Below, piece by piece: positions 23,053-51,035 of a stretch of 64,000 nucleotides of DNA. The DNA lies in the NCBI GenBank assembly GCA_050506795.1, contig JBJHCF010000005.1, forward strand, positions 90,139 to 154,138. The letters are read 5' to 3'. How positions within the stretch are numbered: position 1 is the stretch's first letter; the number at the start of each line of letters is the position of its first letter. The translations under genes were made by a program, and so were the position numbers. The notes below the pieces were generated by a model. The model saw nothing but the letters and a program-made list of their open reading frames with translations, searched no databases and had not been told where the DNA came from. This DNA comes from Opitutia bacterium (lineage in GTDB: Bacteria; Verrucomicrobiota; Verrucomicrobiia; Opitutales; T3Sed10-336).

Positions 23053-23201
23053 TTGCCTGATGGCGACCCTGTTGGCGGACGAATTCCGATGAGTGGAGTG
23101 AATGGTTCGCTATGTTTTCCGCCGGTCCGTCGCCGGGAGGCGGACGGGTCCGCACTGCAAGGCGTTTTGACTTTCCCCCGGGTCGGGCTTTGAGTTTTTC
23201 C

Positions 23202-23636
23202 GTGTCGCAGCCAGAATTCATTTATCGCACCCGGGTCCATTTTGATGAGTTTGACGCCTTGGGGATCCTTCATCACTCCCGCTACCTTCATCATTTGGAA
23301 CGAGCGCAGCAGGCCCTGTTTCAGCACCTGCTCGGCGTTCCTGATTTTGATGCCGACCGGGACGAGGATATCTACGTCGTGGTGCGCGGATTGGAGGCCC
23401 GCTTTCGCGAGCCGGTTCGCCGCCCGGGCGAGTACGCGGTTTTTTACCGTTCGCCCCGCGTCCGTGCCGCCGGCCTCGCGCTCGACTTCGACTTTGCCGG
23501 ACTGGACGGAAACGTCGTTTATTGCAGCGGCAGGCGTACGGTCTGCAAGCTATCCGGGCAAACCCATCGACCCGCCGAATGGAGCCCCCGGTTTCGGCGC
23601 GCGTTGGCGGGTTGGGCGGATGGAAGCGAGGAATGA
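23202..23636 (+). CDS. Acyl-CoA thioesterase (hotdog, YbgC/FadM-like)
   Basis: RVHFDEFDALGILHHSRYL motif; GTG start at 23202 assumed. Confidence 0.8.
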   Translation: MSQPEFIYRTRVHFDEFDALGILHHSRYLHHLERAQQALFQHLLGVPDFDADRDEDIYVVVRGLEARFREPVRRPGEYAVFYRSPRVRAAGLALDFDFAGLDGNVVYCSGRRTVCKLSGQTHRPAEWSPRFRRALAGWADGSEE

Positions 23637-23753
23637 GGCGTGTTTTTTTCCACCATGAACGGTGCAAGGCACTCCGCCAGGGGCTAAGCAATGAGAAGGA
23701 TGGGTCAAAACGGCGCCAAACCGGTGACGTATGACTGTTTTGGAGGAAATTTT

Positions 23754-24221
23754 ATGAAACGACTCACACTGCTTTTCTGCTCACTGCTGACGGCTTCCGT
23801 AATCCCGCTCTCCGCAGCCCACCAGTATAATCCGCTGGGGGCCGGGGTGATTCTGGGCGAACCGACCGGGTTGACGGCCAAATATTGGGTGAGCGACACC
23901 AATGCCTTTGATGCGGCCCTGGGGTGGTCCTTTGAGGGAAGGACCTCGTTCCACCTGCACGGCAGTTATCTTTTTCATGATTTTGAGATGGTGGAGGTCG
24001 CCAAAGGGAGCCTCCCGCTTTATTTCGGTGTTGGTGGCCGGCTGAAGGCCCGCAGCGGCAAGAGCGACCGGCTGGGGGTTCGGGTTCCGGTCGGCGTTGC
24101 CTATCATTTCGAGGATGTCCCGGTCGAGGCCTTTGCCGAGATAGTTCCCATCATCGACATTGTCCCCAGCTCGCGCGCCAGCCTCAACGCGGCGATCGGT
24201 GCGCGCTTCTACTTTGAGTAA
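23754..24221 (+). CDS. Small outer-membrane beta-barrel protein (DUF3996-like)
   Basis: Signal peptide, LGEPTGLTAKYW, LGVRVPVG, C-terminal ARFYF. Confidence 0.75.
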   Translation: MKRLTLLFCSLLTASVIPLSAAHQYNPLGAGVILGEPTGLTAKYWVSDTNAFDAALGWSFEGRTSFHLHGSYLFHDFEMVEVAKGSLPLYFGVGGRLKARSGKSDRLGVRVPVGVAYHFEDVPVEAFAEIVPIIDIVPSSRASLNAAIGARFYFE

Positions 24222-24279: not shown

Positions 24280-24999
24280 TCACCTGGCCAACTCCAGGCT
24301 GGTTAGCGCCTGAAGGTCATTGATTCTGTCTGCCGAGGATTGGTCCGTTTCAAATTGGCTGGAGAGCAGAACGCACTGCCAGCCGGCTGCAATTGCCGGT
24401 TTAAGATCATGTTCCAGACTGTCACCAACGTGCAGAATCCGGTTGGCTGGCGTATTCAACTGCTTTTCCGCGGCGGCGAAAATTTCAGGACTGGGCTTTT
24501 CCCATCCAATCTCCGAGGAGATGATTATGGCATCAAAGGAGTCCAGCATGTCGAATCGCGCCAGAAGAGTGCGGAGACGCCGGTCCCAGTTCGAGAGTAT
24601 CGCGGTACGAAATCCACGTTGGCGAAGGATGGCAATGCTTTCGCGGGTGTTCTTTCGAATTCGCCAGCGTTCCGGGTGAGCGAACGTTTCCCAGAGATCT
24701 GAGAAGACAGCGTCGAATTTCCGGGTCGACTCCAACGGTGGAATGGTTCGTTTGACGATTCGTTTCCACTTGGCGATTTCCCGGGGTTCGTCGGTGGGCC
24801 CTCCCACCGGGGTCGAGTTCGTTTTGCAGGCGGTTGCGAAACTGCGGTTTAACTCTTCGGTATCGCCCTTCAGTCCATGGACGGCGAGGATCTCCGCATA
24901 GACTGCGCCGACGCTGGGCCAGGGGTCGAGAAGCGTTCCGCCTGCATCGAACGTTACTGCGGTGATCGGAGGAATGGAATGTGGAAGCTGCGGCGGCAT
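24280..24999 (-). CDS. HAD-IA family hydrolase
   Basis: FDAGGTL, LSNWD, EKPSPEIF, HVGDS; start ATG 24999 assumed. Confidence 0.9.
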   Translation of the reverse strand: MPPQLPHSIPPITAVTFDAGGTLLDPWPSVGAVYAEILAVHGLKGDTEELNRSFATACKTNSTPVGGPTDEPREIAKWKRIVKRTIPPLESTRKFDAVFSDLWETFAHPERWRIRKNTRESIAILRQRGFRTAILSNWDRRLRTLLARFDMLDSFDAIIISSEIGWEKPSPEIFAAAEKQLNTPANRILHVGDSLEHDLKPAIAAGWQCVLLSSQFETDQSSADRINDLQALTSLELAR

Positions 25000-25511
25000 A
25001 CCCGGCGTGTTAATGGTGACCGTTCGTCGATCCAGTTCAAGCACTGTCCGACCAAAGGGGGCATTGGAGTGCAAGGAAAAAGCGATTGCATGATAAGAAA
25101 AATCCGGTAATGATCATAGGGTATCAACGGCTTGGTTTTAAGGGATTTACCTATGTTCGAACTTATCTTATTGAGAGTCAGGATTTTAACGTAATTCACA
25201 GGGGTTTCGCTTTATGGTGGAAAACTGTAAGTAATTGGAATACAAGACCTTTGATTTTTTGACTTTTCGACATGATTAATTTTCCCGTTGATTAAACTAG
25301 ATTCATTGAGGTGGGAGTAATGCTTTAATTTCGTAGAGAATCTTGATTCAAACCTCTAAAATAAATTCCGGTGTGTGACGAAGCCCGCCGGGGCAAACCA
25401 AGTTCATGTGCGTCGCCTGTCCAACGAAGCCTTGCGTTTCCAAAACCAGATGCCTGCGAGTTCCAGATGACGATTTAGCTGGACACAAATGATTCAAAAG
25501 AAGCTACGAGA

Positions 25512-27206
25512 ATGGGTGTTCCTACCAAGAATATTACCGCACCGATAGAAAGCCAACGCCTGAGCTACCTCAATAAAACAGGCCGGAAAATCATAGCTTA
25601 TTATGATAGTCTGGCGGGGACGGAGATCGAGCCGTACATCGTGGTTGTGCTTCCCAAGTACGGGGAAACAAAGAAAAACAACCTCCAACTCGCTTTCACG
25701 ATGGCAGCTAACGGGCTGCATGTCTTGCGTTTTGACCACACCTGCCATGTTGGCGAGAGTGAGGGAGCCATGACAGATTTTACGCTCCCAGGTGCGGTTG
25801 ATGACGTTCTAACCACCTTGGACTTTGTTCAGGAGCACTTTGGGGTCAAAAAGGTCGTTTTGGTTTCGAGCAGCCTTTCATCAAGGTCTGCGCTTCGGGC
25901 GGCGGCGTTGGATTCCCGAATCAGGAAACTCGTCTGTCTGGTTGGTGTTTTTAATGTCAGCTACACGCTTCGCGAAGTTTATCGCGAGGATCTCGTGGCA
26001 AATCATATCGACGGTAAAACCTGGGGAGTCGCTGACATACTCGGTCATGAAATCGATTTCGATAATTTCCTTCGTGAGCTGGTCAAGGCGAACATGCACG
26101 ATCTCCAGGGAACGATCTATGATTTGAGTCGAACGTCGGCTTCCGCAGCGTATTTTGGAGCTGAGAATGACCCCTGGGTGGACCGTGAAGAGGTTGCGCT
26201 TGCGCTCGGGCGCAGGAGGGATTCGGAGGTCCACCTTGTTGCCGGAGCGATGCACGAGGTTCGTGAAAATCAGGAAAAAGGAGTCGAGGTTTACGATGAC
26301 ATCGTCCGGGCCTGCTTCCTGGAAGGGCGACCTGAGGACAGCGTAATTCTTCGTCCGGAAAAAAAGCCGTTGCTTCGTCAGAACAAAATTGAGCGGGATT
26401 ATTTGCGAAAAGCCAAGGAAAAGGATTTCGAGCCCGAAACGGACTTCTGGGGATCCTATCTGGAGAAGTACAGTTTGTTGGACCGTGTTGACGACTACCG
26501 CCGGTATCTTGATACCGTCGGCGATTTGCTCGGGCGGATTGACGGTGGAGATATTGTGTTGGATGCAGGTTGCGGGAACGGCTTGTTTGGAGTCTGGTTG
26601 ATCCGGGACGTGTTGTCCAGAAATGGACAGGGGGCAGGTTATCAGGGGCCGCCGGTTTACGTTGGGCTGGACCTGACATGCAAGGGTTTGAGTGACGCAA
26701 TGATGCAGCATTGCGACGCGCAAAAACCCTCCAATGGCCATGGTGCCCTCTTGCCGGACTTTATTTACGGTTGCATGGACCTGGATGTTTTTTCGGATCC
26801 GGAAAATAAAGGCGAATTAGCCGTGGAGTTTGGTGAAAACACCTTTGATAAGGTCTGCTGCAGCCTGCTGATTTCATACCTGAAAGAGCCCCAGCGGCTG
26901 ATCGACAAGTTGTACAAGATCCTCAAACCCGGAGGTACGCTTGTTGTTTCAAGCATGAAGCCATTTTGCGACATGTCGATGATCTACCGTGACTTTATGG
27001 ACCAAAAGGTCAGCGCCGGGGAACTGGAGATGGGCCGCGATTTGCTGCGAGCTGCCGGAAAGATCAAGATTAAGGAGGAGCTTGGCTATTATGTGTTTTT
27101 CTCGGGGGAAGAGATGAGCGCTATGGCGGATGACGCTGGATTCCGAAGGATTGAGTTTCGCGAGTGCTTTGGCGGACAGGCTCATGTTGTGAAAGCGGAG
27201 AAGTGA
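25512..27206 (+). CDS. LuxD-type acyl-ACP thioesterase/acyltransferase fused to class I SAM-dependent methyltransferase
   Basis: N-half NGLHVLRFD..HVGESEG..FT, SSSLSS, VGVFN, ENDPWV, AMHEVREN; C-half VLDAGCGNG, FDKV, LKPGG. Confidence 0.85.
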   Translation: MGVPTKNITAPIESQRLSYLNKTGRKIIAYYDSLAGTEIEPYIVVVLPKYGETKKNNLQLAFTMAANGLHVLRFDHTCHVGESEGAMTDFTLPGAVDDVLTTLDFVQEHFGVKKVVLVSSSLSSRSALRAAALDSRIRKLVCLVGVFNVSYTLREVYREDLVANHIDGKTWGVADILGHEIDFDNFLRELVKANMHDLQGTIYDLSRTSASAAYFGAENDPWVDREEVALALGRRRDSEVHLVAGAMHEVRENQEKGVEVYDDIVRACFLEGRPEDSVILRPEKKPLLRQNKIERDYLRKAKEKDFEPETDFWGSYLEKYSLLDRVDDYRRYLDTVGDLLGRIDGGDIVLDAGCGNGLFGVWLIRDVLSRNGQGAGYQGPPVYVGLDLTCKGLSDAMMQHCDAQKPSNGHGALLPDFIYGCMDLDVFSDPENKGELAVEFGENTFDKVCCSLLISYLKEPQRLIDKLYKILKPGGTLVVSSMKPFCDMSMIYRDFMDQKVSAGELEMGRDLLRAAGKIKIKEELGYYVFFSGEEMSAMADDAGFRRIEFRECFGGQAHVVKAEK

Positions 27207-29389
27207 CATTTTATTGTGCAGTCAGTTCGTTCATAAACGCCGTCACAAGCATTGTCCTGGCGATCTCGGTTTACCGATATCGCAAGAGCACAATGGTTGA
27301 GCTTTCCTTTGTTTGCTTCGCTCTTTCGGTTGGATTGTGGTCCGTATTCTATTTTTTCTGGCAGATTGCCGGTTCCGAAGAAGATGCAATTTCGCTGACT
27401 CGTATCCTCATGGGTGCGGCAGCGTTCATCCCGATTAGTTTTTTTTATTTTACGACGACCTTCAGGGGGTATTCGCACAAGTACCAGATGGTCTCAGGCG
27501 TTGTGATCTCCTTTTGCTTTGCGATTGTTTCGATTTCCACCTCCGGAATTGTCGCGGGCGTTTCCCCTAAGATGGGGGTTGAATATTGGCCCGATGCGGG
27601 TCCATTGTTGAAATATTATTTGCTTTTTTGGTTCTATTACGTGGTTGGAAGCATAGTGGTCTTATCTCGGGATTTTCGGCGACAACACGAGAATAAAAAG
27701 AATCAGATTAAGTATATTCTCATTGGAACGGTCATTGGTTTTACCGGTGGTGCGACAAATTTTTTCCTATGGTATGATATTCCTATTCCACCGATCGGGA
27801 ACGTGCTGGTTTCGTTCTATGTGTTTGGCGTTTCATATGCGACAGCCAGATACAGATTGATGGATGTTGACCTCGCCTTGGTTAAAGGCGCGGCATTTTT
27901 TTTCGTGGTTGCTCTTGTTGCCCTTGCATATCCAGTCTCCTGGATCCTGATCGATTCCGGTGGAGCAGGTGGAAGGCAAGCGGAAATTTTTGTAAAGCAA
28001 TATCTCGTTTCTTTTGTCCTGGTCGGCTTTTTGTTTTTAGCCGCGCCACGCTTCATGAAGCGTTTGAATGCTTTCGTTGAAACACAACTAAAACAATCGC
28101 AGTACAATTATAGAAATCAGTTGCGTTGGCTGATTCGGAAAATCGATCAGTTGGAGCGAAGCGAGGAGATATTCTCGAAGACGGCCACTTTTCTGTGCGA
28201 CCAATTGAGCGTCGAAGCGGTCGCGGTGTTTATCCGTGAAAAGACCGCCATGAGTTTTGTGTTGCGAGCAAGAGCCGGAGCGAAGGATTTTGAGATCAGG
28301 GCGTTGGACGAGCAGGACAGTCTCGTGGAGGTTATGAATAAAGTCGGAGGAGTGATATGTGTAGAGGAACTCCGTCAGCATATCGATGCCGGTGGGGACG
28401 GCAGTCTGCCGATTGAATCCGGTGTGAGAAAATTGAGCGAGTTGGGAGTGGAGATACTGATTCCTCTGCTGACTGAGGAGCGGCTGCACGGCTTCTTTTT
28501 GCTTGGAAAACGATGGCCGAGGAATTACTACTCGGAACCGGATTTGGCTTTATTTGAAGTCTTGGGTATGGAAATTGCAGCTAGCATCAGGATTCGTGAG
28601 CTGGAGCGCCGGTCGGCTGAGAATGAGAAGCTCATGGCGTTGGGCACGATGGCTGCCGGATTGGCCCATGAGCTCAGAAATCCGATGGTTTCCGTCCAGA
28701 CTTATATTTCTATGCTTGAGGATGAATGTGCCGGGCCGGTGTTGATCAAGGATACGAAGATGCTTGGAATCATTCAACGGGACCTTCGGCGTATGAACGA
28801 AATCGTTCACAACGTAGGCGCGTTTGCTCAGAACGTGCCTCTTGAGATGAATCCTGTCGATCTGCGTTCGGTAGTTGATACGGCAATCGAAGTTGAGGCT
28901 GAAAACATACAACGCAGGGATGTTCGGACCACGGTTCATTGTCAGGTCACACACCCGGTAAGAGGCGACTTTAATCAGTTGGTGCAGGTTTTTCAGAATT
29001 TGATCATGAACGCGACCCAGGCATTCCAGGAGAATCACGAGAAATTGATCACGATTACGGCGGTCGAAAAACTGGAGAATAATGGTAGGGGAGTGGTGTT
29101 GGTGACCGTTGAGGACACCGGTCCCGGGATAGATATGGAGATTATAAGAAATCTTTTTGAGCCTTTTGTGACCACCAAAGCAACGGGTTCGGTCTCGGAG
29201 CATAGAGGGATGGGGCTTGGTCTTGCTATCGTGAAGCAAATAATTGAGTCGCATCAGGGAATTGTTGAGGCGTTCAACCGCCCGAGCGGCGGAAGTTTAT
29301 TTCGGATTTTATTGCCATTAATGCAGGGTGTCCAGGTTCACGGTCAGAACGGAAATGAGAGATTATCAATCCACCAACAGCATGATTGA
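27203..29389 (+). CDS. Multi-TM (HisKA_7TM-like) + GAF sensor histidine kinase
   Basis: About 8-9 hydrophobic segments, GAF (LIPL..GFFLLG..Y..DL), AHELRNP, NLIMNA, DTGPG, GMGLGL; GTG overlaps upstream stop (GTGA). Confidence 0.9.
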   Translation: MTFYCAVSSFINAVTSIVLAISVYRYRKSTMVELSFVCFALSVGLWSVFYFFWQIAGSEEDAISLTRILMGAAAFIPISFFYFTTTFRGYSHKYQMVSGVVISFCFAIVSISTSGIVAGVSPKMGVEYWPDAGPLLKYYLLFWFYYVVGSIVVLSRDFRRQHENKKNQIKYILIGTVIGFTGGATNFFLWYDIPIPPIGNVLVSFYVFGVSYATARYRLMDVDLALVKGAAFFFVVALVALAYPVSWILIDSGGAGGRQAEIFVKQYLVSFVLVGFLFLAAPRFMKRLNAFVETQLKQSQYNYRNQLRWLIRKIDQLERSEEIFSKTATFLCDQLSVEAVAVFIREKTAMSFVLRARAGAKDFEIRALDEQDSLVEVMNKVGGVICVEELRQHIDAGGDGSLPIESGVRKLSELGVEILIPLLTEERLHGFFLLGKRWPRNYYSEPDLALFEVLGMEIAASIRIRELERRSAENEKLMALGTMAAGLAHELRNPMVSVQTYISMLEDECAGPVLIKDTKMLGIIQRDLRRMNEIVHNVGAFAQNVPLEMNPVDLRSVVDTAIEVEAENIQRRDVRTTVHCQVTHPVRGDFNQLVQVFQNLIMNATQAFQENHEKLITITAVEKLENNGRGVVLVTVEDTGPGIDMEIIRNLFEPFVTTKATGSVSEHRGMGLGLAIVKQIIESHQGIVEAFNRPSGGSLFRILLPLMQGVQVHGQNGNERLSIHQQHD

Positions 29390-30821
29390 CCATAGATCAA
29401 ATGCGGTCGGATTCCGATCGGGGTCTGTCGAGCGGGCGTTGCGCCGTTTTGGAGCGGCCTTCGCCCATATAGGCAGTCTGGATCGATTCACAGACGCCTT
29501 GGAAAAGGCCATGAGTGAAGCGATGTTTCTGAGGGAAGCAGTGATTCATCTGGAGGCAGAAGATCAATCCGGCACGGCCAGGGATTGTTTCGTGGCAGGG
29601 TCATTGGTGCTTCCACTCCAGGGGAAGCAAGCGGTACGTGGAACCGTGGAGGTGCGCAGTCCCGGCGCGCTGCGCCCGTACGGTCCCGATGAACTGCGGT
29701 TGCTGTCTTCCCTGACTTCGTTTTGCGCCTCATTGGTCGAACATGCGTTCAAACACGCGGACCAAGGCCGGGATCTGGCTATTCTGCGGTATATTTTTGA
29801 TCAGCTCCCGGTCCCGGTGCTGGCCTGTACCGAGAGCGGTCGGATCCTGATCCTGAACTCGCGCGGCGCTTCCTGCCTTCGGCTTTCAAAATCCGAACCG
29901 GGGCACCTCGGGTCGGAGATTCATTCCAGGATGCTTGCGGCCTGCGAGAAGAACGGAGCTTCCAGTTTCGGCTTTTTTGTCGCTCTACCGGGCCAATTGA
30001 TGAAGGCAACGGTGTCGCCCTGTCCGGCACAGGGCACGATGGAGCGGGTCTATTGCATGACGATCATGGACCTGACGCAGGAAAGGGAGCGTCTTCGCCA
30101 AGGGCTTTTCCGAGAAGCCTTTCGTTGTCGTTGGCTGAATAAACCGCTGACCCGGATCACTTTACGCAACACAGAGAATCCTATGGCCCTTATCGAAATG
30201 CTACCCCTTTTGCGGCGTCGCCTTGGCAGTGACGACCGGGCGGGTCCGTGGGAGGAGGATGCCTTGGCCCTGGCATTTCCCGAGATCACGAAGTGGCAGG
30301 CTTTGACGGAACTCCGCGAGTGGCTGCGGACTGACCAAAGTGGCGAAATGACCGTTGGGGTAGCCATGATGGAAGCGGGATCTGATCATCCGGAAGAGAT
30401 CGGTGAAGCAGAGGGCGAGGAAATTTTCCGATTGGAGGAGATGCTTCGCCCGGCGATTCTCCTGCATGACGAGAGTCAGGAGGTGAATGACTCCCTGGAA
30501 TACGCCTTGCGAGGGGATTATCAGGTGGTCAAGAGCCATTGCTCCGCCGCAACCCTCGGTATCCTCGCCGACCGGCGATTCGATGGGTTAATTATCGAAC
30601 GGTATCCGCGTGACGGTGGCAGCGGGGTCGATTTGGCTCGACGTGCCGCGGAGATGAATCCTGACATCCAGGTTTTTTTCACCGGGGCTTTTGCGGAAGG
30701 AACCTGCAGTGACCTGAAGGACTTCGCGCGACCTCCGGTCGCGGTACCCAAGCCGTTCCGGGTGGATCGGCTCCTGGCACTCGTTCGCGAGTGCCTGGAT
30801 GCTCGGGGTTCTGTTTCCTGA
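29382..30821 (+). CDS. GAF/PAS-like + degenerate GGDEF-like + atypical receiver protein
   Basis: IFDQLPVPVL..GRILILN (PAS start), DDRAGPWEEDALALAFPE, C-terminal LLHDES..FDGLIIE..SG..FFTG..PKPF; ATG overlaps kinase stop. Confidence 0.7.
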   Translation: MIDHRSNAVGFRSGSVERALRRFGAAFAHIGSLDRFTDALEKAMSEAMFLREAVIHLEAEDQSGTARDCFVAGSLVLPLQGKQAVRGTVEVRSPGALRPYGPDELRLLSSLTSFCASLVEHAFKHADQGRDLAILRYIFDQLPVPVLACTESGRILILNSRGASCLRLSKSEPGHLGSEIHSRMLAACEKNGASSFGFFVALPGQLMKATVSPCPAQGTMERVYCMTIMDLTQERERLRQGLFREAFRCRWLNKPLTRITLRNTENPMALIEMLPLLRRRLGSDDRAGPWEEDALALAFPEITKWQALTELREWLRTDQSGEMTVGVAMMEAGSDHPEEIGEAEGEEIFRLEEMLRPAILLHDESQEVNDSLEYALRGDYQVVKSHCSAATLGILADRRFDGLIIERYPRDGGSGVDLARRAAEMNPDIQVFFTGAFAEGTCSDLKDFARPPVAVPKPFRVDRLLALVRECLDARGSVS

Positions 30822-30834
30822 TTCGGAGCCTTTC

Positions 30835-31740
30835 ATGGACGGCTTGGAGCAGGCACGGATGGAGTGCCCGGCGAAAATCAACCTTTCTCTTTCGGTTACG
30901 GGGCGCAACGCGGACGGTTTTCATAATCTGATTTCCCTGGTGGCGCCGGTCGATTTCGGGGATTGCCTGGAAGTCCGTCGGGAGGCTGGATCCGGGGTGT
31001 CCCTGGAGGTTGACGGTGAATCGATTCCCTCGGGAGAGGACAACCTGGTCATAATGGCGGCCCGTCTTTTTCTGCGGAATTTCTCCGCTGGCGGACGGTT
31101 TGCGTTTTTCCTGAAAAAGAGAGTTCCTGTCGGTGCGGGTCTGGGGGGAGGGAGTTCCGACGCGGTTGGGGCTTTGCTGTTGCTGAATAGGGTTCTTGGG
31201 AATCCGGCATCCGAGCGGGATCTATACACGATGGCCGGGGCACTCGGTTCCGATTGTCCCTTCTTTGTCCGGGCTTCGCCCGCGATAATGCGCGGCCGCG
31301 GCGATAAACTTGAATGGTTGACCGATCCGGAGGCTGAGCGGTTGCTGGGACGGCGTGTCATCCTTTTTAAACCTTTGCCCGGGGTTTCCACGGTTTGGGC
31401 CTATCGGGAATTGGCCCGCTCTGCCCGTTATTCGGATCCGGATCACGCGGAAGCCGTCCTTGCGGACTGGCGCGGGGGAAAAGGGTCGCTTGAGTCTCTG
31501 CTGAGCAACGATTTCGAGATTGTGGTGAGGGCTAAGTATCCGGGGATTCCGGTCCTTTTACGCGAATTGCGAAGCGATTCGCGCGCTCTGGCCATGATGA
31601 GCGGCAGCGGCAGCGCCTGCTTTCTGCTGCCGGCTGAGGGCTGCGAAGAGGGTGCGATTGCCAGGATTCAAGAAGCGTGGGGGGCGGATACGTTTTGTGT
31701 CGAAACCTTGATTGGCAAAAGGACATTGACCACGCCTTGA
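30835..31740 (+). CDS. ispE: 4-diphosphocytidyl-2-C-methyl-D-erythritol kinase
   Basis: PAKINL, DGFH, PVGAGLGGGSSDA, LGSDCPFF, MSGSGS. Confidence 0.96.
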   Translation: MDGLEQARMECPAKINLSLSVTGRNADGFHNLISLVAPVDFGDCLEVRREAGSGVSLEVDGESIPSGEDNLVIMAARLFLRNFSAGGRFAFFLKKRVPVGAGLGGGSSDAVGALLLLNRVLGNPASERDLYTMAGALGSDCPFFVRASPAIMRGRGDKLEWLTDPEAERLLGRRVILFKPLPGVSTVWAYRELARSARYSDPDHAEAVLADWRGGKGSLESLLSNDFEIVVRAKYPGIPVLLRELRSDSRALAMMSGSGSACFLLPAEGCEEGAIARIQEAWGADTFCVETLIGKRTLTTP

Positions 31741-48316: not shown

Positions 48317-48871
48317 ATGGGAGAGAATGAGAAGTCAGAGGACCGGTTTGCAGACGACGATGGCAATATTGAGGTGATCGATGTCAGGCCGCTCTTGGAA
48401 TCCGGCCGGGAGCCCCTGCCGGTCATATTGGACGCGGTTTCCCGTTTGAGTGCCGGATGCGTGCTTTGCGTCCGCGCTCCATTTGAACCGGTGCCGTTAT
48501 ACGGCCTGATGGCTTCGAGGGGTTACGGCGTGACCTCGAAAAAAAAACGGGATGGCGACGTCGATTCGTATTGGGAGGTATTGTTCTATCCTTTGACCGA
48601 GACCGAAGCCGACGAACCGATGCCGGATTCCGCCGGGTCGAACGAATCCGAAACGGAGGGGTTGGTGCGGATTGATCTGCGGGGCGAAAGTCTTCGTGAG
48701 GGCCTGGAGCGAATGAGCATCGCGCTGGAAGGGTTGCGCTACGACGATGTGCTCCTCGTTCAGCACGATCACGATCCCGCAACCCTCCGGTCTCACCTCG
48801 ACCAGAGTGTTTTTTCACACCGAGATGAGGACGCCGGAAGCGCGTTGCTGAGAATCTGGCGAAAGCGTTGA
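48317..48871 (+). CDS. DUF2249 domain protein (two repeats)
   Basis: IDVRP..EPL..APFEPVPLY and IDLRG..DHDP..L; AAGGAG RBS before ATG 48317. Confidence 0.8.
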   Translation: MGENEKSEDRFADDDGNIEVIDVRPLLESGREPLPVILDAVSRLSAGCVLCVRAPFEPVPLYGLMASRGYGVTSKKKRDGDVDSYWEVLFYPLTETEADEPMPDSAGSNESETEGLVRIDLRGESLREGLERMSIALEGLRYDDVLLVQHDHDPATLRSHLDQSVFSHRDEDAGSALLRIWRKR

Positions 48872-48974
48872 CCCGACTCCCGGCAGCCGATCACAGCCGG
48901 GTCTGTGTCAACGATATTTTGCCTGGCAAATTATTGCTCTTTGGTCGTTGCCGGACGACGCACCGGCGTTCGGG

Positions 48975-51035
48975 TCAGGACGGCGCGGTGAATTTTGTGT
49001 CCCGGTTGGCCCGGGTCAGGCGGTGGACGCGCGGTTGGGGCAGGGCTGAAAGAAACAGGCGGCCGTAGGTTTTGTGCAGCAGGCGGGTGTCGAGCAGGGT
49101 GATTATTCCCTGATCGGATTTGCCGCGAATGAGGCGTCCGACACCCTGGCGGAATTTGACCAGGGCTTGCGGCAGGGTGAATTCGGCGAACGGGTTGCCG
49201 CCGCGCGCGCGAATCCATTCACACTTCGCCTCGGGGATCGGGTGGGAGGGGTTCTCGAAAGGGAGCCGGGTCACGATTACCTGCGAGAGGGCCGGACCGG
49301 GGATATCGACCCCGATCCAGAAACTGTCGGTCCCGAAAAGCACTCCGTTGCCGGCCCGGGCGAAGCGACGGGCGAGTTCGGTGCGCGAGAAATCCCTTCC
49401 CTGCAGGAAAAAGGGCCGCCGCATCCGCTGAAAGGTCTCTTCGACTTCGAGCGCCACCTTTCGCATATCCTGGTAACTGGTGAAGAGCACCAGGGTGCCG
49501 CCTTCGATGCCGGCGGCGCAGAAGGTGATGTAGTCGGCGAGCGCCTCCAGCGCCAGCCGCCCGTCGCTCGCGGCCGGCGCGGGGACATCGGCGGCGAGGT
49601 AAACGCGCATATTCCTCTCGTAGTCGAAGGGGGAAGACACCACTTCCGCCCGCACCTGATCAGCGCCGATCTGCGCCTGGAATATTTCCATGTTGCCGGC
49701 TGGAGCGAGCGTGGCGCTGGTCAGGATCACTGACGTTTCCCGTTGGAAGAGGCATTCGCGCAGACACGGTGCGATGTCGATCGGCGCATTGCGGAGCGTG
49801 ACGTTCGCGCCTTGCTTGCCGGTGCGCTCAACCCAATGCACGTGGTCTTCCGCCGCCAGACTGAGGCATTGATTGATGCCGGTGGCGTAGGTTTCCAGTC
49901 GACGCTTTTGATCGCGCAACTCGCTGTAGGCCGGGCTGTCTTCGTCCATCCGGTCGACGATGGAACCCACGTGCTGAATCAATGCCCGCAAGGGAGGACC
50001 GAGTGTCGGTTCGGCCCACCCTTCCTCCCGCAGGCGGACAATCGCGCGTTCCTTCAGGATGCGCTCGCGGATAAATCCGAAGAACTGCGCGGCCGCTGCC
50101 GAAGCATCGAGCACCGCTTGCTGGTGGCGGCTGTGACCGTGCCGAACCAGGAGTCCGCGATTCTTTTTCGGATTGAAGAGCCGGTTCAGCAGTCTCTGCA
50201 ACCCGCTCGAGCCGAGGCTCAGACCGAAGTGATCGGTGGCGATGGCCGGGATGGTGTGGGCTTCGTCGATGACGACAAAATCGTCGGGGAAAAGGACCCC
50301 TCTACCTTTGGCGGGCGCGGCGCCCGCGTTGATCAGCGCGAAGAGGAGGCTGTGGTTGACAATGATCAGGTGCGCCTTGCGCAGGTTCGCCCGGGCGCGC
50401 TGGTAGGGGCAGAGTTCGGGGGTGCAGTTTTTCCGGTTGCAGACGGAGGAGTCGGCGTTCACCTGTTCCCAGACATCAAAAGGCGGAGCCGGGCTCAGTT
50501 CCTGAACCAGACCCTCCGAGGTTTCCTGCGACCATTCGGCTAGCCGGTGCAGTTCCTCCTGTTCGGCACTGCCGAAGAGGTCGCCCCGGGTCTCAATGGC
50601 TCGAGCGAGGCGGTAGGTACAGAGGTAGTTGGCTTTACCCAGGAGCAGGGCGGTACGGAACCCGGCGCGATGTTCGAGTTGCGGGATTTTTCCAAAGAGC
50701 GAACGACAAAGGTTCAGGTCCTTTTTCTGGATCTGTTCCTGGAGCGAAATGGTGTTGGTGGAGACGATGCATGGACGCTCCTTTTCCAGGGCATGCAAAA
50801 GCGCTGGAACCAGGTAGGCCAGGCTTTTGCCGACTCCCGTTCCGGCTTCGAAAAGCAGCGGTTCGTCGGCTTCCAATGCCGCCGCCACGGCGTTGGCCAT
50901 GGTTTCCTGCTGGGGACGGTACTCCAGGCCGAGGTTGTGGTGTAACCAGCCGTCGAGCGCGAACGTGCCGGCCACCAGCGGAACGAGTTCGCCGGCCGCG
51001 GGTGCGGCTTCAAAGTCCTGGTTGAATCCTATCAT
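48975..51035 (-). CDS. DinG/YoaA-family ATP-dependent DNA helicase
   Basis: EAGTGVGKS, NYLC..C..CPY (Fe-S), DEAH, TSATL, QGVGRLIR. Confidence 0.93.
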   Translation of the reverse strand: MIGFNQDFEAAPAAGELVPLVAGTFALDGWLHHNLGLEYRPQQETMANAVAAALEADEPLLFEAGTGVGKSLAYLVPALLHALEKERPCIVSTNTISLQEQIQKKDLNLCRSLFGKIPQLEHRAGFRTALLLGKANYLCTYRLARAIETRGDLFGSAEQEELHRLAEWSQETSEGLVQELSPAPPFDVWEQVNADSSVCNRKNCTPELCPYQRARANLRKAHLIIVNHSLLFALINAGAAPAKGRGVLFPDDFVVIDEAHTIPAIATDHFGLSLGSSGLQRLLNRLFNPKKNRGLLVRHGHSRHQQAVLDASAAAAQFFGFIRERILKERAIVRLREEGWAEPTLGPPLRALIQHVGSIVDRMDEDSPAYSELRDQKRRLETYATGINQCLSLAAEDHVHWVERTGKQGANVTLRNAPIDIAPCLRECLFQRETSVILTSATLAPAGNMEIFQAQIGADQVRAEVVSSPFDYERNMRVYLAADVPAPAASDGRLALEALADYITFCAAGIEGGTLVLFTSYQDMRKVALEVEETFQRMRRPFFLQGRDFSRTELARRFARAGNGVLFGTDSFWIGVDIPGPALSQVIVTRLPFENPSHPIPEAKCEWIRARGGNPFAEFTLPQALVKFRQGVGRLIRGKSDQGIITLLDTRLLHKTYGRLFLSALPQPRVHRLTRANRDTKFTAPS

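Follow-up and report, generated by a model that had tools for sequence, protein, structure and literature searches.

The subject of this analysis is a three-gene cassette in a 64,000-nucleotide stretch of Opitutia bacterium DNA (contig JBJHCF010000005.1, forward-strand positions 90,139 to 154,138), hereafter called the window. The cassette consists of SYN, encoding a LuxD-type hydrolase fused to a methyltransferase, HK, encoding a membrane sensor kinase, and OUT, encoding an atypical output protein. The module would belong to the kind that joins a signal synthase to a sensor kinase of its own; it recurs in two phyla and lends itself to experiment. Our preferred, tentative reading, to which we give slightly less than an even chance, is that SYN–HK–OUT is a synthase–receptor module for a fatty-acid methyl ester. 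This reading draws on the domain make-up of the proteins, the intact catalytic residues of the enzyme, the coupling of the genes, their linkage across phyla and the strict co-occurrence of HK with SYN.

Inspection of open reading frames (ORFs) revealed that SYN, HK and OUT are three overlapping same-strand ORFs that fill window positions 25512-30821. The first-pass annotation of this DNA had described them as coupled by start/stop overlaps, and this was confirmed: in the GTGA at 27203-27206 the stop of SYN is shared with a GTG start of HK, and the stop of HK and the ATG of OUT (29382) overlap in ATGATTGA, 29382-29389, with OUT ending at 30821. An alternative in-frame GTG start for HK lies at 27164. 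Since the alignment of relatives' kinases begins at residue 1-4, directly after the enzyme stop, we favor the start at 27203.

The enzyme: a LuxD-type thioesterase fused to a methyltransferase

SYN (25512..27206, + strand) is a 564-residue protein that combines an alpha/beta-hydrolase of the LuxD acyl-thioesterase/acyltransferase type with a class I S-adenosylmethionine (SAM) methyltransferase, as identified by Pfam models and a match to the LuxD structure 1THT. The hydrolase domain, delimited by aligning the family profile with 1THT, spans residues 45-299 (25644..26408, +), and residues 60-267 match Acyl_transf_2/LuxD (PF02273) with 80.3 bits against a gathering cut-off of 20.3. Among PDB chains, 1THT is by far the closest, with an E-value of 3.7e-20 for the single sequence. 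For the SYN family profile the value is 1.3e-30 over residues 45-299 and almost the whole 1THT chain, the next hydrolase following at 9.3e-12, so that by sequence comparison this half of SYN is specifically LuxD-like. The SLS, ND.WV and H..EN motifs of 1THT are retained in the residue alignment, and S121, S123 (in S121-L-S123), D220 and H248 are invariant across 31 family members. The aligned Ser, Asp and His positions, which we take to be the catalytic residues of LuxD, indicate an intact triad.

The methyltransferase domain covers residues 330-545 (26499..27146, +) and is preceded by a conserved helical cap at residues ~290-330. It was matched by the Pfam models Methyltransf_23 (44.5 bits, cut-off 27), Methyltransf_31 (37.4 bits, cut-off 27) and Methyltransf_11 (34.9 bits, cut-off 21.2), as well as by Methyltransf_12 and Methyltransf_25. 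Its motif I reads LDAGCGNG, and residues D351, G353, C354, G355, N356 and G357 are invariant in the 31 family members. The hidden Markov model (HMM) searches thus bore out the fusion proposed at first pass. The best 120 SYN homologs listed share 46-72% identity with it, and all of them contain both the LuxD and the methyltransferase domain (PF02273 in 120/120). A tblastn search of SYN against 72,556 plasmid records gave no match, and searches of Burkholderiaceae with the single sequence (40 genomes) and the profile (150 genomes) returned short generic hydrolase or methyltransferase matches only.

With respect to LuxD itself, 1THT is the nearest solved relative of the N-terminal half of SYN, and its Ser, Asp and His residues align. 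SYN differs from LuxD in being fused to a methyltransferase and in falling below the equivalog cut-offs: NF052253 and NF010127 score it at 78.1 vs 420 and 78.6 vs 529 bits, respectively. In addition, no match to LuxC or LuxE (PF05893, PF04443) was found in the window's genome, which is 97.8% complete. The LuxD-type domain therefore does not feed a lux fatty-acid reductase, and an acyl group released by it cannot go to aldehyde for light production. The distinctness from luxCDABE that had been suggested for the cassette holds on this ground.

The membrane sensor kinase

HK (27203..29389, +) encodes a 728-residue membrane sensor histidine kinase, as judged from Pfam matches and hydropathy. Its N-terminal part is a HisKA_7TM domain (PF16927; nt 27230-27868, residues 10-222, +) that scored 50.4 bits against a gathering cut-off of 28.6, in agreement with the multi-transmembrane (TM) HisKA_7TM kinase anticipated at first pass. 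It is followed by a GAF domain (GAF_3; nt 28163-28588, residues 321-462, +), a HisKA domain with the H-box LAHELRNP (nt 28640-28822, residues 480-540, +; 44.5 bits) and a HATPase_c domain (nt 28964-29320, residues 588-706, +; 80.9 bits). The hydropathy profile revealed two extra hydrophobic segments between HisKA_7TM and GAF.

The only NCBIfam model spanning the sensor part of HK is TIGR02916, that of PrsK, a histidine kinase belonging to the XrtA/PEP-CTERM system, which aligns with residues 135-705. HK is not PrsK by this model, as it scored 129.2 bits against a 300-bit cut-off, and with three relatives included the range was 112-150. PrsK and HK have in common the multi-TM region, the GAF domain and the HisKA-HATPase core, and a regulator of the NtrC type comes after the kinase in Nitrospirota. 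In contrast to PrsK, HK and its relatives remain far under 300 bits, and the regulator scores 438 where the PrsR cut-off is 502.6.

Conservation of the cassette in Opitutia

Using the single SYN protein, we found 43 Opitutia loci, in which neighbors were counted by targeted tblastn. The SYN family profile detected a relative in 102 stretches, and the 77 loci kept from these all belong to Verrucomicrobiota, mostly to Opitutia. HK adjoins SYN in 36/36 Opitutia loci with at least 900 bp of downstream sequence, and OUT is present in all 31 loci with at least 3700 bp downstream. On the other side of SYN, a divergently oriented REC-GAF kinase gene was found in 37 of the 38 loci with at least 2300 bp upstream. 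The order of this divergent arm is a ~660-residue REC-like-GAF-HisKA-HATPase protein, usually then FadL/TodX, an outer-membrane channel through which hydrophobic molecules pass, and then a REC-HisKA-HATPase protein of ~410-430 residues (REC-kinase). The HAD and ispE genes that flank the cassette in the window were never kept beside it in relatives. No biosynthetic gene is conserved across the 43 Opitutia loci, the kept neighbors being signaling proteins and FadL only. In rhizobia, FadL is reported to be linked to long-chain acyl-homoserine lactone signals (PMC9938287).

In the window's genome, both arm kinases are encoded on another contig, C17 (47419-50723), with 41-47% identity to those of relatives, and FadL on contig C51. 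The REC-kinase gene occupies 47419-48711 of C17 and the REC-GAF kinase gene 48708-50723. In the C17 REC-kinase the receiver is canonical (DD, D, T, K) and an H-box is present; in the C17 REC-GAF kinase the receiver is partly degenerate. A beta-ketoacyl-ACP synthase (KAS; ACP, acyl carrier protein) II-like gene lies at C17 50808-52046 (-), 84 bp upstream of this kinase pair and in the same orientation. The genome has three KAS paralogs, of which this one scored 332.9 bits against a FabF cut-off of 493.75. It is absent from the neighborhood in all 43 Opitutia loci and in the 80 loci of the Nitrospirota set described below.

To follow the genes across genomes, we used a sample of 201 genomes drawn evenly from the window's order; related genomes are not independent, and we give counts with no statistical test. 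SYN occurs in 9/201 genomes, the window's genome included. The sensor half of HK (residues 1-465) occurs in 8/201; all eight are SYN carriers, and each encodes it beside SYN. The ninth carrier has SYN at the end of a contig. The HK sensor half was absent from all 192 SYN-less genomes of the sample. The REC-GAF kinase was found in 15/201 genomes, namely in 9/9 SYN carriers and six others, and in the window's family it is on a different contig from SYN. These counts therefore define SYN–HK(–OUT) as the tight unit and the divergent arm as a partner that also exists alone.

Long relatives in Nitrospirota

Longer relatives of SYN, of 1060-1450 residues, carry REC, PAS and PilZ domains joined to the LuxD-methyltransferase core and share 28-34% identity with SYN over 96-100% of its length. 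In an exhaustive library of cluster representatives, 169 were retrieved at a threshold of E<=1e-30 and 634 when this was relaxed to E<=1e-10, and their N-terminal extensions were about 0, 130-330 or 600-880 residues long. With the long-form profile we fetched 80 loci, of which 78 are from Nitrospirota, one from Nitrospinota and one from an ‘uncultured bacterium’. A same-strand, full-length HK homolog lies within 1500 bp after the core in 57/71 loci of this set with enough DNA, and at 2.0-2.8 kb in five further loci. The 7TM part of these kinases is 33-39% identical to that of HK, and in five Nitrospirota examples analyzed with Pfam the 7TM-GAF-HisKA-HATPase architecture is identical. The recurrent synthase–kinase pairing for which a gene-neighborhood analysis had been proposed is thus present in both groups of loci.

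Two Nitrospirota loci (L176:10756-13380 and L178:12670-15265) carry an NtrC-type sigma-54 activator and a REC-HD (HD_5) protein after the enzyme–kinase pair, and the enzyme in these loci has one to three PilZ domains. The combination of a PilZ-bearing enzyme with NtrC and REC-HD proteins suggests a loop through cyclic di-GMP (c-di-GMP).

The output protein

OUT (29382..30821, +) is a 479-residue protein in which four domains were recognized from Pfam analysis of orthologs, AlphaFold models and fold searches. The OUT sequence alone gave just one weak GAF match with Pfam. In 31 orthologs, GAF_2 was matched in 26/31, Response_reg in 20/31 and PAS_8 in 11/31, which places a GAF-like domain at about nt 29418-29741 (+) and a PAS-like domain at about nt 29802-30074 (+) of the window. 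The AlphaFold model of the whole protein had a predicted local distance difference test score (pLDDT) of 84.9. Fold searches with the whole model were swamped by receiver and multi-domain chains, and the middle domain was folded separately, with a pLDDT of 87.4.

In a search of 48,161 chains with the middle-domain model (residues 228-356, nt 30063-30449, +), ranks 1-37 were all GGDEF domains, with Z-scores from 12.4 (3qyy_B) to 7.2 and 114-126 residues aligned in most of them. The non-catalytic c-di-GMP receptors FimX, LapD, PelD and BcsE are among these 37 best matches. The GGDEF fold is degenerate: the orthologs have the consensus GPYDA at the place of the GG(D/E)EF active site, as located by inspection of the alignment, and the GGDEF model PF00990 gave no match at E<=0.1 in any of the 31 orthologs.

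The C-terminal part (residues 355-479, nt 30444-30818, +) is modeled as a receiver (CheY-like) fold, which aligned with 3crn_B over 123 residues with a Z-score of 18.8 and a root-mean-square deviation of 1.9. The residue that ends strand beta-3 (402-406) is Glu406, which puts Glu at the phospho-acceptor site, a position set by inspection and not by residue-level superposition. In this column, the 31 orthologs have Glu in 28 cases, Asp in two (L038 and L041) and Asn in one (L010); K457-P-F, which contains the conserved receiver Lys, is invariant in the alignment. Domain analysis identified no DNA-binding domain in OUT. The protein is therefore best described as a GAF-PAS-pseudo-GGDEF-pseudo-receiver protein lacking a DNA-binding domain, for which the earlier label of an atypical output protein was apt.

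Proposed mechanism and alternative explanations

If SYN–HK–OUT is a synthase–receptor module, the LuxD-type Ser of SYN would take an acyl chain from acyl-ACP, or from another acyl thioester or ester, and release it. The fused methyltransferase would O-methylate the carboxylate, and the hydrophobic product would be a fatty-acid methyl ester or a methylated acyl compound close to it. This compound would leave the cell and act between cells; in relatives the FadL channel would help it to cross the outer membrane. The translationally coupled HK would perceive it in the membrane through the 7TM domain, possibly together with GAF, and change its autophosphorylation. OUT, in which Glu replaces the phospho-accepting Asp and a DNA-binding domain is lacking, is probably a phosphorylation-independent adaptor that docks on the kinase. 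Phosphoryl groups would flow to the REC-GAF kinase and the REC-kinase, encoded on C17 here and divergently beside SYN in relatives. Signaling would thus run through kinases and pseudo-receivers instead of a classical DNA-binding regulator.

The general arrangement has precedents. In the CqsA/CqsS, LqsA/LqsS and Rpf/diffusible signal factor (DSF) systems, the gene of an autoinducer synthase that acts on fatty-acyl precursors stands next to that of a polytopic kinase whose TM region binds the hydrophobic product. The enzymes of these systems are pyridoxal phosphate-dependent acyl-CoA transferases or a crotonase, and the sensor domains of their kinases also differ from those of the SYN–HK pair.

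Several observations weigh against the synthase–receptor reading. The PDB, NCBIfam and Pfam matches of the methyltransferase half are generic only, which makes O-methylation of a carboxylate a guess; the substrate of this domain cannot be read from the sequence. The module has no DNA-binding output, and its two arms are unlinked in the window's genome. The REC-GAF kinase is present in six SYN-less genomes and is therefore not module-specific. In 9/71 loci of the Nitrospirota set, no kinase is adjacent to the core. Finally, the Nitrospirota enzyme, encoded beside the kinase, frequently carries REC, PAS or PilZ as fused input domains, which fits the output of a pathway at least as well as the source of the ligand.

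This last point leads to the most serious alternative, which we consider unlikely at a level that still demands attention: SYN may be a regulated output. HK would sense the state of the membrane, or an external hydrophobic compound arriving via FadL, and the pathway would switch on SYN for lipid remodeling or detoxification, for example by taking off acyl chains and exporting them as neutral methyl esters. The REC, PAS and PilZ fusions in Nitrospirota show that the enzyme receives signals, and it may therefore be the effector of the pathway. With REC, PAS and from one to three PilZ domains at its N-terminus and a kinase encoded directly downstream, it has the layout usually seen in effectors under the control of phosphorylation and c-di-GMP. 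The degenerate GGDEF fold of OUT and the REC-HD protein of the Nitrospirota loci likewise point to c-di-GMP control, and FadL suggests that an outside compound is taken up. However, the Opitutia enzyme, including that of the window, has no input domain, and a kinase type that is restricted to carriers of the enzyme, with its gene next downstream and coupled in translation, is seen more typically in synthase–receptor pairs. Feedback control of the synthase is usual in quorum sensing, which makes the fusions compatible with the synthase–receptor reading as well. The two explanations can coexist as a feedback loop.

It is improbable, in our estimate, that SYN serves metabolism in the manner of BioC/BioH, where a methyl ester would temporarily mask an intermediate of an unusual acid or lipid synthesis, the hydrolase half would remove the ester or thioester, and the neighboring kinases would regulate the pathway or be unrelated to it. 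This idea draws on JGI homolog names that include ‘SAM-dependent methyltransferase/pimeloyl-ACP methyl ester carboxylesterase’, on weak matches to BioC (TIGR02072, 21.8 bits) and to UbiG/UbiE-type models, and on the sub-FabF-cut-off KAS gene beside the REC-GAF kinase. Such model matches are far under the curated cut-offs (184.95 bits for BioC), the hydrolase half prefers LuxD over the next hydrolase by many orders of magnitude in E-value, and signaling genes and fadL, not biosynthetic genes, are what the Opitutia loci conserve.

Comparison with the Phc system

As a reference for Phc, we used the four-gene phcBSRQ-like operon of a Ralstonia-genus genome, found via the best match to the Opitutia REC-kinase. 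This match is to the phcR-like protein (30% identity, residues 2-403, E 3.9e-20); in the reverse direction, the C17 REC-kinase is the second-scoring match of the phcR-like protein, with 23% identity. The reference operon encodes a 470-residue methyltransferase, a 455-residue kinase, a 368-residue REC-HisKA-HATPase protein and a 339-residue receiver protein, and its gene order and sizes fit phcBSRQ, the gene sizes of the latter being inferred from coordinates given in a section of PMC6989110. The 470-residue PhcB-like protein is 76% identical to a Ralstonia syzygii match that abuts a site resembling the published phcS-start primer, with three mismatches. An exact-match search of the genome contigs with a published phcS primer gave no hit. 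According to passages of PMC2864759, the operon also occurs in R. pickettii and Cupriavidus, and parts of PMC6637872 and PMC2864759 describe the Phc signal as methyl 3-hydroxymyristate or methyl 3-hydroxypalmitate.

The SYN cassette shares several features with Phc. Both operons open with a SAM methyltransferase enzyme followed by a polytopic sensor kinase, neither includes a DNA-binding response regulator, a REC-HisKA-HATPase protein of PhcR architecture is part of the cluster in relatives of SYN, and a fatty-acid methyl ester is the product class presumed for SYN. The differences concern the proteins themselves. SYN has a LuxD-type thioesterase to which the N-terminal region of PhcB is unrelated, as the first 265 residues of PhcB matched neither LuxD nor any other Pfam model. 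HK has HisKA_7TM and GAF domains, and Pfam found neither in the PhcS-like kinase, with which HK has the kinase core alone in common (29%). OUT lacks a Phc counterpart, since the receiver is the only part in which it matches the PhcQ-like protein. FadL and the REC-GAF kinase are extra in the SYN cluster, and the phyla also differ, the SYN cassette being found in Verrucomicrobiota and Nitrospirota.

Profile comparisons with hhalign gave a probability of 5.8% over 39 columns for the SYN family profile against the PhcB-like protein and 22% over 53 columns against a nine-member PhcB profile; the Nitrospirota profile reached 46.5% with the PhcB profile, the alignment taking in 126 columns, all within the Rossmann core. 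A tblastn search of the window's genome with the PhcB-like protein returned 0 matches at E<=1e-3. The cassette is therefore Phc-like on paper and appears not to be a member of the Phc family. The distinctness from phcBSR put forward at first pass stands, the likeness between SYN and PhcB being limited to the generic methyltransferase core. Divergent orthology between the cassette and the phcBSRQ quorum-sensing operon of Ralstonia and Cupriavidus is hardly credible, because the shared order of methyltransferase enzyme and membrane kinase and the phcR-like best match are set against the low PhcB profile probabilities, the dissimilar N-terminal and sensor domains and the weaker reverse match.

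The search for Phc counterparts also yielded candidates that were rejected. A ~465-residue ORF from Burkholderiaceae (L102:4792-8117) is of PhcB size and has a 265-residue N-terminal region with no assigned domain; it is not phcB, since its C-terminal methyltransferase stands beside a 4HBT thioesterase and it does not lie in a phc-type operon. The HisKA_7TM matches in Ralstonia-genus genomes are not phcS either, but a 7TM-GGDEF protein and a small methyltransferase–kinase pair. This pair, on the second replicon of one such genome (L091:5539-7920), consists of a 249-residue class I methyltransferase directly upstream of a 460-residue HisKA_7TM kinase; it is adjoined by a 7TM-GGDEF protein and a 4HBT thioesterase and does not belong to the phc operon that this genome also carries. 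In one Burkholderiaceae genome (L261, G024:C9:159798-161204), the PhcB-like gene contains an in-frame TAG, which may reflect a pseudogene or an assembly error, and this row was left out of the PhcB alignment (A5).

Novelty and implications

A full-text literature search with subscription journals outside its scope turned up no publication that describes either a LuxD-methyltransferase fusion or the SYN–HK–OUT cassette, and no characterized chemical communication system for Opitutia. To our knowledge, signaling in Nitrospirota is little known. We put forward, as a somewhat doubtful proposition, that the LuxD-type thioesterase-methyltransferase, together with the 7TM-GAF kinase dedicated to it, represents a new cross-phylum class of lipid autoinducer systems. 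This class would comprise the first quorum-sensing-like system of Verrucomicrobiota (Opitutia) and, in Nitrospirota including the nitrite oxidizers of the genus Nitrospira, a PilZ/REC-fused and thus c-di-GMP-gated synthase, with a Phc-like way of working and an independent origin.

A kinase type that exists only beside one type of enzyme makes the synthase–receptor hypothesis directly testable, and, going by record titles, strain IMCC26134 (L008), Thalassobacterium maritimum (L171) and Nitrospira sp. T9 (L235) are carriers in culture. Should SYN make a fatty-acid methyl ester, signaling of the Phc type would have arisen at least twice, from different enzymes. A route from acyl-ACP to a methyl ester in one polypeptide would, if true, be of interest for the engineering of biodiesel-type esters. 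If the enzyme is instead an output, it would represent a new kind of lipid-modifying effector under two-component and c-di-GMP control.

Flanking genes, leader and base composition

The cassette lies between a gene for a HAD-IA hydrolase (24280-25074, - strand; Pfam/NCBIfam) and ispE (30799-31740; TIGR00154, 165.7 bits against a cut-off of 138.7), and domain and family models thus agree with the flanks named at first pass. Beyond the HAD gene, the region 23112-24221 encodes a protein with weak likeness to YbgC/FadM acyl-CoA thioesterases (46.5 bits against a cut-off of 141), together with a 176-residue protein that has a signal-peptide-like start and matched no NCBIfam model; neither is conserved beside the cassette in relatives.

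Between the divergent HAD gene and SYN lies a 437-bp intergenic leader (25075..25511, +) with a GC content of 0.40, against 0.589 for the genome. An Rfam search of the leader at E<=1 matched no family, and promoter-like and terminator-like sites are no commoner in it than in shuffled sequence. The leader contains an imperfect tandem repeat of 16 nt at 25264-25295 (two copies, 75% identity), ~220 bp 5' of the SYN start, which could be a regulator site or a chance occurrence.

The leader is AT-rich, as had been noted, and the low GC content extends into the cassette: the 4-kb segment 25075-29074 has a GC content of 0.487, and just 0.47% of 2351 4-kb windows of the genome are equally low. GC content is 0.519 in SYN, 0.479 in HK and 0.584 in OUT, and GC at third codon positions is 0.54-0.60 in SYN and HK versus 0.62-0.70 in neighboring genes. 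Of the three genes, SYN and HK are foreign in composition, OUT being ordinary in this respect, and across this genome family the divergent kinase arm is found away from the cassette. Together, the composition of SYN–HK and the unlinked arm may reflect a transfer or replacement of SYN–HK alone.

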